Part shown: positions 8,292 through 12,436 of the stretch, piece by piece
How positions within the stretch are numbered: the first letter of the stretch is position 1
Layout of the letters: each line of letters opens with the position of its first letter
DNA from: Minisyncoccota bacterium
Lineage (GTDB): Bacteria; Patescibacteriota; Minisyncoccia; Phycocordibacterales; UBA9973
Assembly: GCA_017991395.1 (NCBI GenBank)
Contig: JAGOQQ010000002.1
Coordinates: 61,925 to 125,924, forward strand
Direction: 5' to 3'
Length of the DNA: 64,000 nt
The notes under the pieces: model-generated
The model's input: only the letters and a program-made list of their open reading frames with translations
Told to the model about the DNA's origin: nothing
Databases searched by the model: none
Translations under genes and position numbers: made by a program

Positions 8292-9056
8292 ATGATTATA
8301 ATTAAGACAGAGAAAGAAATAAAAAATCTACGTATCGCCGGAAAACATCTCGGTGAGATTCTTTCAATTCTTGAAAAGGAAATCAAGCCAGGCGTCACAC
8401 CAAAACAGCTCGATGCAAGATCACGAGAGCTCATACAAGAGAGAGGGTGCACACCTGCGTTTCTTGGATACACACCGCATGGAGCACCGCGTCCTTATCC
8501 ATCTGCACTTTGTACTTCTGTAAATAGTGAAGTAGTTCATGGTATTCCCACAAACACACCACTTAAAGAAGGAGATATTATTTCGATTGATCTTGGACTT
8601 TGGTACAACGCCGTGGTGGTGGATTCAGCACGCACAGTTCCTGTTGGGAAAATTTCACCCGAACTTGAAAAGCTTTTACAAATTACACGCGAATCACTCT
8701 ATGTCGGTATACAACAAGCAGTGGCGGGTAATCGCACAGGAGATATAGGAAATGCAATTGAGACGTTCATCAAACCTCATAACTATGGAATTGTGAAAGA
8801 ACTCGCTGGTCACGGAGTGGGACGTGAAATTCATGAAGATCCCTATGTACCAAATTATGGGAAAAAAGGCACAGGGTCACTTTTGAAAGAAAACATGGTT
8901 ATTGCAATTGAGCCAATGATCAATCTTGGGAAAGCAGGCGTAGTGTTCCACAAAGATGGGTACACCGTCACTGCAAAAGACTCTCTTCCAAGTGCACACT
9001 TTGAGCACACCGTACTGATCACAAAAGGTAAACCAGAAATTCTCACAGATTATTAA
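8292..9056 (+). CDS. map: methionine aminopeptidase type I
   Basis: 254 aa with the pita-bread fold metal ligands in context (DLGLWYN...HGVGREIHE...AIEPMI...FEHTVLIT). Confidence 0.85.
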   Translation: MIIIKTEKEIKNLRIAGKHLGEILSILEKEIKPGVTPKQLDARSRELIQERGCTPAFLGYTPHGAPRPYPSALCTSVNSEVVHGIPTNTPLKEGDIISIDLGLWYNAVVVDSARTVPVGKISPELEKLLQITRESLYVGIQQAVAGNRTGDIGNAIETFIKPHNYGIVKELAGHGVGREIHEDPYVPNYGKKGTGSLLKENMVIAIEPMINLGKAGVVFHKDGYTVTAKDSLPSAHFEHTVLITKGKPEILTDY

Positions 9057-9157: not shown

Positions 9158-11896
9158 ATGGAAGGTTACCTAAAAGAAGTTCCTCAATTTAATACACCAG
9201 AAGAAGAACTTGCGTATTTGCGTGAGCATGTTTCTCGTCGTGAAAAAGAACTCTATGAAAATGGATTTGAAGCAGAAAAAGCAAAGATAGCACACGAAAC
9301 TCTTCGTTCATATGGAAATATTCCAAAAGCTCAAGCACTAGAACGCAGTCAAATGATACAAGACGGCGAAGCACACGAGATAGTTCTTCGCCTCAAGCCT
9401 GAACCACATGATCACAAAATGGAAGAATTGCTTGGTATTTTACTCGAGCGAGGAATTCGAAATGTTCTTGATATTATAGAAAAATCAAAAAACCCACATC
9501 TTGACGATGACTTCCATCGCTTTTTGGTGCAATATCTTATTTCGTCTGACCAAATACCAGGGTTGAAAGAGGGAACGGAAATTTGGAAATCTCTCCATAT
9601 GAAATTGTTTGAAGTGACTCTCCCAGAAAAATCTGGAAATGACACTCGTGGATTCAAGGATTTTCTCGGAGGAATGGAACAGTTTTTTGCTGGAATGAAT
9701 TCAATTGCTTCAGACAAAGACAATACGAAGAAAAATTATTTTACTATTGAAGTAGCACTTTCAAATCAAAGTGATGAAGTCGTGGTGTATGTGGGTGTGC
9801 CAAATGAAAAGATTGATTTGTTCGAGAAACAATTGAACGCATCATTTCCAAATTCAAAAATCCGCGAAGTCGTGGATGACTACAATGTGTTTATGGAAGG
9901 CGGTGGATCTGCAGGCTCATATGCAGTACTTGAAGAAAGCGAAATTTATCCACTCAAGACTTTTGATACCTTTGATCACGATCCAATTAATGCACTTTTG
10001 AATGCGTTTTCTAAACTCAAAAAAGAAGGCGAGGGAGCGTCAGTACAGTTTGTGATTGCACCGACCGGGACTACTCACATCAAGCGATTTCAGGATGTAC
10101 TTAAACATGTTGAAAAAGGTCTTTCCGCAAAAGATGCTCTCAAAAAAACTTCAAGCGCAATCGATGATGCACTTATTGAGATCGGAAAAGGATTATTTTT
10201 TGGACATACTTCAAACAAGGACGAAAAAGAACCACCAAAAATAGATGACCGCACAATCAAGCGAATTACAGAAAAAATGAAAGCGACGATGGTGCTTTCA
10301 AATATCCGCATAATTTCTGGTGCTCGTGATGTTGTTCGAGCAGAACAAATAGTGGCAGAAATTGCGTCATCATTCAATCAGTTTACCGAAGCAGGAAGCA
10401 ATAGTCTTGTCTGGAAAAAAGTTGAGGGAAATTCTGCAAAGGAACTTTTTCATATGTTTTCATATCGCATTTTTGACGATTCAAAAAAGCTGGTGCTCAA
10501 TCTCCACGAGCTCTCAACTATGATTCATTTTCCATATGGCATCACCAGCGCACCACAGCTCAAGCAAGCACGTGCGGGTACTGCATCAGCACCACTTGAA
10601 CTTATTGGCGAAGGGACGCTCCTTGGTGTCAATCGTTTTCGAGGATTTGAAACTCCGGCATATCTGACAAAGGAAGATCGCGTGAGACATTTTTATTGTA
10701 TTGGACAAACCGGTACTGGTAAGACGACTCTATTGAAAAATATGATAGTCCAAGATATCGAAGCAGGCCACGGTGTGTGTTATATTGATCCGCACGGAAA
10801 TGATATCCAAGATATTCTTGCTTCTATTCCACGAGAGCGTATTGATGATGTGATTTATTTTGACCCCGCATACACAGCTCGACCAATGGGTCTCAACATG
10901 CTCGAATACGATCCACGATTTCCTGAACAAAAAAGTTTTGTGGTGGATGAGATGCTTTCGATTTTCAATAAGCTTTTTGATATGAAAACTGCGGGAGGTC
11001 CTATGTTTGAACAATACTTCAGAAACGCTACGATGCTCGTACTTGAAGATCCAGAAAGTGGAAATACACTTCTTGATATTTCACGCGTGCTTGCAGATGA
11101 AAAATTTCGCGCGCTCAAACTATCAAAGTGCACCAATCCGGTAATCCTTCAGTTTTGGAATAATATTGCAGGGAAGGCAGGAGGTGAAGCGTCTCTTCAA
11201 AACATCGTCCCTTATATCGTCTCAAAATTTGACGTGTTTCTATCAAATGAAATAATGCGTCCGATTGTTGCTCAAGAAAAATCCGTATTTAATTTTCGAG
11301 AAATTATGGATAACAAAAAGATTTTGCTTGTGAATCTCTCAAAGGGTCGTCTCGGTGAAATCAATTCGAGCTTGCTCGGACTTGTGATTGTAGGAAAAAT
11401 TTTGATGTCGGCACTTTCTCGCACGGATGCGATGGGACAAAAGCTCAATGATTTTTATTTGTATATTGATGAATTCCAAAATGTGACCACAAACTCAATT
11501 TCACAAATTCTTTCTGAAGCACGAAAATATAGACTTTCGCTCAATATCGCTCACCAATACATTGGTCAACTTGAAGAGGGAATCAAAAATGCGGTGTTTG
11601 GAAACGTCGGATCAATGGCAGTATTTCGTGTTGGACCAGACGACGCAAAATATCTTGAAGCACAGCTTGCTCCGGTATTTTCATCTGATGATATTATTAA
11701 GCTCGAAAATAGAAATGCGTATTTGAAACTTCTTGTGAATGGTCAACCAGTAAAACCATTTAATATAGAAACACTTCGCCCGCCAGAAGGTCGCCCGGAA
11801 ATTATCGACAAGCTGAAAGAGCTTTCATACCTCACATACGGACGCGACAGAGCTGAGGTAGAGGAAGAAGTGGCGCGTAGATATCGAGCACTCTAA
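9158..11896 (+). CDS. 912-aa cytoplasmic FtsK/HerA/VirD4-superfamily P-loop ATPase (T4SS coupling-protein-like, TraG-D_C-like C-terminus) with no predicted TM segments
   Basis: Walker A GQTGTGKTT at roughly aa 515. Walker B YLYIDEFQN followed by ARKYRLSLNIAHQYIGQL, as in TraD/TraG/VirD4 C-terminal domains. The ~480-aa N-terminal region is soluble with no recognisable motif. Confidence 0.5.
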   Translation: MEGYLKEVPQFNTPEEELAYLREHVSRREKELYENGFEAEKAKIAHETLRSYGNIPKAQALERSQMIQDGEAHEIVLRLKPEPHDHKMEELLGILLERGIRNVLDIIEKSKNPHLDDDFHRFLVQYLISSDQIPGLKEGTEIWKSLHMKLFEVTLPEKSGNDTRGFKDFLGGMEQFFAGMNSIASDKDNTKKNYFTIEVALSNQSDEVVVYVGVPNEKIDLFEKQLNASFPNSKIREVVDDYNVFMEGGGSAGSYAVLEESEIYPLKTFDTFDHDPINALLNAFSKLKKEGEGASVQFVIAPTGTTHIKRFQDVLKHVEKGLSAKDALKKTSSAIDDALIEIGKGLFFGHTSNKDEKEPPKIDDRTIKRITEKMKATMVLSNIRIISGARDVVRAEQIVAEIASSFNQFTEAGSNSLVWKKVEGNSAKELFHMFSYRIFDDSKKLVLNLHELSTMIHFPYGITSAPQLKQARAGTASAPLELIGEGTLLGVNRFRGFETPAYLTKEDRVRHFYCIGQTGTGKTTLLKNMIVQDIEAGHGVCYIDPHGNDIQDILASIPRERIDDVIYFDPAYTARPMGLNMLEYDPRFPEQKSFVVDEMLSIFNKLFDMKTAGGPMFEQYFRNATMLVLEDPESGNTLLDISRVLADEKFRALKLSKCTNPVILQFWNNIAGKAGGEASLQNIVPYIVSKFDVFLSNEIMRPIVAQEKSVFNFREIMDNKKILLVNLSKGRLGEINSSLLGLVIVGKILMSALSRTDAMGQKLNDFYLYIDEFQNVTTNSISQILSEARKYRLSLNIAHQYIGQLEEGIKNAVFGNVGSMAVFRVGPDDAKYLEAQLAPVFSSDDIIKLENRNAYLKLLVNGQPVKPFNIETLRPPEGRPEIIDKLKELSYLTYGRDRAEVEEEVARRYRAL

Positions 11897-11959: not shown

Positions 11960-12436
11960 ATGTCACAACCAATTCACGAGAGGTCTTTAATAATCATCAA
12001 GCCAGATGCAGTTCAACGAAACCTAATCGGCGAGATAATCAGTCGTTTTGAAAGAAAAGGATTGAAAGTAATTGGTCTAAAAATGATGAGTGTTGAAGAC
12101 GCGACACTAGAAGAACATTACTCACACATTAAAGATAAACCATTTTTCCCAGGCATTCGAGATTTTATGAAATCATGTCCTGTGGTGGTGATGGCGCTTG
12201 AAGGTATCAATGCAGTATCATCAATTCGTATTCTCGTTGGTCCAACCAAAGCATGGGAGGCAGACGCGGGAACAATTCGAGGAGATTTCTCTCTTTCAAC
12301 TCAATCAAATATTGTGCACGCATCTGATTCTGTAGAAAATGGTCTTATTGAAGTTGATCGATTTTTCAAGAAAGAAGAACTCTTTGTATACAAGAAAATT
12401 GATATCGATTTTGTGTACGCTGAACACAAAGAATAG
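11960..12436 (+). CDS. ndk: nucleoside diphosphate kinase
   Basis: ERSLIIIKPDAVQRNLIGEIISRFERKGLKVIGLKMM...NIVHASDS is the NDK signature including the active-site His region. Confidence 0.9.
   Translation: MSQPIHERSLIIIKPDAVQRNLIGEIISRFERKGLKVIGLKMMSVEDATLEEHYSHIKDKPFFPGIRDFMKSCPVVVMALEGINAVSSIRILVGPTKAWEADAGTIRGDFSLSTQSNIVHASDSVENGLIEVDRFFKKEELFVYKKIDIDFVYAEHKE

Follow-up and report, generated by a model that had tools for sequence, protein, structure and literature searches.

Locus and gene neighbourhood

The window, i.e. the whole 64-kb stretch of DNA analysed here, contains the open reading frame exactly as originally predicted, with the two predicted flanking genes map (8292-9056; Peptidase_M24 by synteny) and ndk (11960-12436; NDK, 170 bits). 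The gene and the features of its product are the following:

9158..11896, + strand: whole gene, ATG start, 912 aa; DUF8128-family VirD4-type (t4cp1) coupling-protein-like ATPase in a soluble 'long' form
9158..9598, + strand: N-terminal helical extension, long class only (aa 1-147), in the place of the transmembrane (TM) helix of sister lineages
9407..9544, + strand: conserved block HDxKMEELLGILLxKGIxNxL...NPHLDDDFHRFLVQYL of invariant or near-invariant columns (aa 84-129)
9599..10567, + strand: alpha/beta domain resembling the VirB4 N-terminal domain, DUF8128 core (aa 148-470)
10154-10240, + strand: disordered K/E-rich loop in the VirB4-like domain (aa 333-361)
10595..11896, + strand: C-terminal RecA-like motor domain of the VirB4/VirD4/HerA group (aa ~480-912)
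10703..10726, + strand: Walker A / P-loop GQTGTGKT (aa 516-523); TrwB_AAD_bind, 22.4 bits, aa 505-548
10928..11317, + strand: helical insertion between Walker A and Walker B (aa ~591-720), from the secondary structure of the model
11456..11473, + strand: Walker B YLYIDE (aa 767-772)
11519..11572, + strand: TraG-D_C-type motif ARKYRLSLNIAHQYIGQL (aa 788-805); Pfam TraG-D_C, 22.0 bits, aa 766-824

The GC content of the gene (0.37-0.41) is typical of the window. Promoter-like sites occur around it only at chance frequency, and the terminator scan detected no site inside either of the two flanking intergenic gaps.

The original prediction regarded the gene as inserted in the ribosomal protein cluster. 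The order secY-adk-map-ATPase-ndk-(DUF2238)-betaCASP-LOG is, however, kept in relatives about 60% identical, and map-X-ndk is kept at 39 of 51 informative species loci. Because of this synteny, a mean identity of 70% per column in the homolog alignment and the normal GC content, a recent insertion or mobile element was rejected. The gene is an ancestral, syntenic and chromosomally inherited core gene of its clade, and its seemingly odd position, ordinary for the lineage, is thereby largely explained. The family comprises more than 2,100 homologs and is found in at least 586 species genomes, of which all named ones are Patescibacteria; in further homolog searches, all named matches were Parcubacteria-type proteins.

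Members belong to a long class, which includes the window protein, and a short class. The synteny with the beta-CASP nuclease, ndk and LOG is restricted to the long class, whereas short-class genes are accompanied by dnaX, GtrA, a Na/Ca exchanger or RmuC. Directly downstream of two of four short-class genes lies dnaX, in one case continued by UDG, ExoIII and XseAB. A functional tie to the long-class neighbours, with its theme of nucleotide salvage, was rejected because the short-class neighbours differ; as neighbour sets vary between classes and loci, no functional partner is conserved throughout the family.

The large ORFs of the window include neither VirB4, VirB6 nor a relaxase, which upholds the predicted absence of VirB4 and VirB6 genes nearby, and linkage to any T4SS gene is likewise lacking in the window and in the relatives examined. 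T4SS partners do occur elsewhere in a closely related genome, about 150-170 genes away: according to PMC12102498, the genome of KKR20588.1 carries its coupling protein at CDS 411 and VirB2/VirB3/VirB4 at CDS 563-579 (VirB3 and VirB4 at 577-579). Integrase, relaxase, nuclease, Sir2 and methylase partners do not adjoin the gene. A type IV pilus cluster (PilM, PilB, PilT, PilC) is located at about 38-46 kb of the window.

Motor domain

The protein belongs to the P-loop motors of the HerA/FtsK superfamily; its Walker A, Walker B and TraG-D_C motifs are intact. All three motifs were located as originally predicted and occupy invariant or near-invariant columns in an alignment of 76 homologs, the invariant residues being G516, Q517, T518, G519, G521, K522 and T523 in Walker A, Y769, D771 and E772 in Walker B, and A788, R789, K790, Y791, H799 and Q800 in the TraG-D_C motif. 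Structure comparison of the motor gave scores of 29.3 for the VirB4 C-terminal domain, 26.6 for TrwB (362 residues structurally aligned) and 26.0 for HerA; the fold lies as near VirB4 and HerA as it does VirD4. By its position, the helical insertion would be the equivalent of the all-alpha domain of type IV coupling proteins (T4CPs).

N-terminal half and membrane anchor

The N-terminal half was originally described as a region of no recognisable motif. Yet a precomputed match to PF26449/DUF8128 is recorded for the identical protein and for every full-length homolog listed, and in the predicted structure residues 148-470 share their fold with the N-terminal domain of VirB4. The fold search with this domain returned VirB4, and HerA chains were absent from the 60 matches listed. 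The likeness is a structural one: Pfam, NCBIfam and PDB profile searches provided no sequence bridge between the domain and VirB4, the profile of the domain retrieving no VirB4 chain from the PDB sequences. No publication on DUF8128 came up in the literature search.

The preceding 147 residues are all-helical in both AF2 models and have no Pfam match; alignments to phrog_5156, to the plasmid and phage relatives and to the short class begin only beyond about aa 140-190. In agreement with the predicted lack of a membrane anchor, hydropathy detected no TM-like segment in the first 480 residues, and the same holds for the first ~220 residues of all 119 full-length long-class homologs; no cryptic TM helices came to light in the N-terminus. 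The sole 19-residue segment with a Kyte-Doolittle value of at least 1.6 (aa 735) falls within a helix of the ATPase core that was modelled with confidence. The predicted combination of a T4CP-related P-loop motor, no TM anchor and a large N-terminal region is thus supported. Short-class proteins, in contrast, possess an N-terminal TM segment in 117 of 121 cases. In these sister lineages a single TM helix lies at the position of the extension, and a small gene is found immediately upstream (139-156 aa, at all four short-class loci).

The block at aa 84-129 is common to the extension and these small upstream proteins. HMM searches matched three of the four in the same block with 20.7, 14.5 and 10.3 bits (1,000 shuffled decoys reached 14.5 bits at best and 8.2 bits next) and the fourth with just 2.6 bits; hhalign of extension and upstream protein gave E=4.2e-5 with a probability of 70% over 46 columns. 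Homology between extension and partner is thus moderately supported at the sequence level. The soluble form constitutes one derived clade in the NJ tree, and the ancestral form is TM-anchored. The helical extension is probably a fused copy of the small upstream partner that replaced the TM anchor.

Family assignment

The identical protein is on record as 'TraM recognition domain-containing protein [Ca. Pacebacteria]'. Among the Pfam families proposed for comparison in the original prediction, PF10412 (TrwB_AAD_bind) exceeds its cut-off of 20.5 bits, over just 44 residues, PF12696 (TraG-D_C) equals its gathering score of 22, and AAA_10 (PF12846) is absent at E<=1. The same absence applies to the other VirB4 sequence families, PF03135 (CagE_TrbE_VirB) and PF19044 (P-loop_TraG), and NCBIfam VirB4_plasma reaches only 15.2 bits against a cut-off of 590. 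PF02534 (T4SS-DNA_transf) has no match in the window protein, and NCBIfam SXT_TraD scores 47.9 bits (E 7e-13) against a cut-off of 366, the protein's own T4CP scores being marginal and local. Short-class relatives with 38-44% identity, however, pass the thresholds of PF02534 (45 bits), PF10412 and PF12696. PF01935 remains below its cut-off (20.7 against 23.2 bits), PADLOC yields weak matches to mad8 (35 bits) and HerA (~15 bits), and a match to the FtsK_SpoIIIE motor domain was not obtained. The layout of a VirB4-type N-terminal domain followed by a RecA-like ATPase, with TrwK/VirB4 as best full-length Foldseek matches, is that of VirB4, but a VirB3-like neighbour or membership of an MPF cluster is absent at this locus and at those of the relatives examined.

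KKR20588.1, a homolog of 58% identity in the same syntenic position, appears in Table S3 of PMC12102498 as T4CP/t4cp1 (profile coverage 88%); among the rows seen it is the only t4cp1 row of its genome, and it bears the flag 'VirB4 proximity: No'. Orphan T4CPs of Patescibacteria are thus an already published phenomenon. The window protein is best read as a VirD4-type T4CP homolog in soluble form with a VirB4-like N-terminal domain.

Function and alternative explanations

Of 3,035 Patescibacteria genomes, 2,918 encode T4CP homologs, mostly distant from virB4, and relaxases are missing from most Patescibacteria (PMC12102498). The non-conjugative role put forward in the original prediction is plausible and agrees with published views. 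The single patescibacterium that can be manipulated genetically needs its T4SS to grow as an epibiont; the T4SS cluster of Southlakia is essential, yet has been described without a recognisable coupling protein. Southlakia Tn-seq classifies SEML1_0293 as NE and SEML1_0142 as ES; both are two-domain in layout and each is a candidate DUF8128 ortholog only.

We consider it slightly better than an even chance that the protein is the T4CP of a domesticated monoderm-type T4SS, to which it docks via the VirB4-like domain. By analogy with TrwB of R388 it would assemble as a hexameric, ATP-driven ring. The N-terminal domains of VirB4 mediate dimerisation and contacts to VirB3/VirB8 in R388, and the VirB4-like domain could correspondingly bring the ring to the membrane by docking on the inner-membrane platform of the T4SS (VirB4 and/or VirB3/VirB8-like subunits). 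The ring may then, in a relaxase-free manner, recruit or push into the channel a putative nucleic-acid or protein substrate, and in the long class the fused helical domain would stand in for the membrane anchor. Against the coupling-protein reading count the missing T4SS linkage, the marginal T4CP scores of the protein itself, a motor fold equally near to VirB4 and HerA, the absence of relaxases from most Patescibacteria, the description of the essential Southlakia cluster without a coupling protein and a T4CP homolog that PMC12102498 refers to as non-essential.

A rival reading is a housekeeping translocase, exapted and independent of any T4SS, whose nucleic-acid substrate would be chromosomal or scavenged and which would work by itself or together with partners from outside the T4SS (segregation, repair, or handling of imported DNA/RNA for salvage). 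This possibility, which we judge rather unlikely, is consistent with the lack of virB4 linkage in the relatives examined, the housekeeping setting of the long class (map, adk, ndk, beta-CASP nuclease, LOG), the dnaX (in one case with UDG, ExoIII and XseAB) downstream of two of the four short-class genes, and the rarity of relaxases; Patescibacteria furthermore rely on salvaged nucleotides, a 2026 preprint reports RNA feeding, and exaptation is raised in PMC12102498 itself. Synteny in streamlined genomes is, however, weak evidence of function, particular neighbours are not kept throughout the family, the retained VirB4-like domain and the ancestral TM anchor suggest a membrane machine, and the closest relatives outside Patescibacteria all lie within T4SS-type modules. 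The same modules bear on the improbable alternative of a second, divergent VirB4-type assembly ATPase, for which the Foldseek matches and two domains without multi-pass TM segments would speak: all mobile elements examined, like the related genomes, encode a separate true VirB4, and a relaxase-like gene adjoins the relative on the B. subtilis and Embleya replicons, as is typical of T4CPs. Moreover, T4CP profiles do match the family and those of VirB4 fail.

Relatives in plasmids and phages, together with the PADLOC matches, could also suggest that the gene is left over from an integrated conjugative element or a prophage, or that it encodes a defence ATPase of the HerA/DptH/MADS kind. Both are very improbable for a gene syntenic across dozens of species, with its conserved columns and normal GC: the Patescibacteria clade is separate from the mobile-element relatives, and the likeness to PADLOC entries and DptH is limited to the common P-loop motor. 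A HerA-nuclease or defence system was accordingly rejected; the originally suggested role as HerA-like helicase partner fared no better, the neighbours being map and ndk, with no nuclease or effector partner next to the gene, and those of the sister class being different. Least probable of all is that the gene supplies an extra motor for the type IV (competence) pilus, the link suggested in the original prediction to a locus at 37-51 kb. Gene and pilus locus do share the 64-kb window, and type IV pili serve DNA uptake in Patescibacteria, but the cluster is 26 kb distant and has its own PilB and PilT ATPases, the Pfam search indicates no homology to T2SSE-type ATPases, and no pil gene lies within +/-6-10 kb of the family gene in any relative examined; the link was rejected.

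A more speculative extension of the coupling-protein reading, which we regard as doubtful, would see in DUF8128 T4CPs that kept a VirB4 docking domain, a surviving intermediate in the origin of coupling proteins from a duplicated VirB4. Such a 'VirB4-mimic' would work in an essential, relaxase-less T4SS, perhaps by replacing an outer VirB4 protomer, and transport nucleic acid or proteins of host or self origin, its tether being replaced by a fused adaptor in the clade of the window protein. The near-universal orphan T4CP of Parcubacteria appears as a conserved core gene with a VirB4-like domain and a dedicated small partner, either fused or encoded upstream. This opens interaction hypotheses (N-terminal domain with VirB4, VirB3 or VirB8; partner with substrate) and offers a handle for finding what ultrasmall bacteria move through their T4SS. 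A T4CP with a VirB4 N-terminal domain also bears on the divergence of VirB4 and VirD4 in T4SS evolution.

Comparison with known systems

The orphan Patescibacteria T4CPs of Quinonero-Coronel et al. (2025; PMC12102498) are the same proteins: chromosomal, near-universal and relaxase-less. The accessible part of that paper states of their function 'exapted ... cannot be ruled out'; the domain architecture, the VirB4-like N-terminal domain, the TM and fused-partner forms and the map-ndk synteny are not mentioned in it.

TrwB/VirD4 (TrwB of R388, PDB 1e9r/1gki; PF02534, PF10412, PF12696) consists of a TM anchor and a motor only, whereas the window protein is TM-less, possesses about 470 additional N-terminal residues (helical and VirB4-NTD-like domains) and has no adjoining relaxase or MPF genes; in sequence the similarity is marginal, with E values of 0.45 (PDB phmmer) and 0.006 (profile). 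From VirB4 (TrwK of R388, PDB 7o42; C-terminal domain of T. pseudethanolicus VirB4, 4ag5) it differs in matching none of the VirB4 sequence families and in having no VirB3 alongside, and a separate true VirB4 is present in the genomes and elements examined.

Closer relatives are found on mobile DNA in T4SS-type modules. Phrog_5156 is homologous across the VirB4-like domain and the motor (E 1.5e-85, aa 148-908), and tblastn gives 22-27% identity to mobile-element proteins over aa ~190-890. The relative on B. subtilis plasmid NZ_CP032854, an 886-aa 'DUF87 domain-containing protein', adjoins a Tcp-like conjugation module that includes a VirB4-like ATPase, as well as a Replic_Relax protein; an 812-aa T4CP of an Embleya replicon is flanked by a Replic_Relax protein on one side and by a VirB4-like ATPase and PrgI on the other; gp156 of Bacillus phage G comes after the VirB4-type gp155. 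The Bacillus plasmid and phage relatives checked are TM-less like the window protein, but the mobile-element relatives do not possess the 147-aa helical extension, and in the NJ tree they fall outside the single clade formed by the Patescibacteria members.

The original prediction set the protein apart from canonical T4CPs by its solubility, for which pIP501 offers a precedent: TraJ is a T4CP without its own membrane anchor, and the small membrane protein TraI has been proposed as its tether (PMC12857230). By analogy, a soluble T4CP may rely on a small partner for localisation; TraI has two TM segments, unlike the soluble helical domain that forms the partner or extension here.

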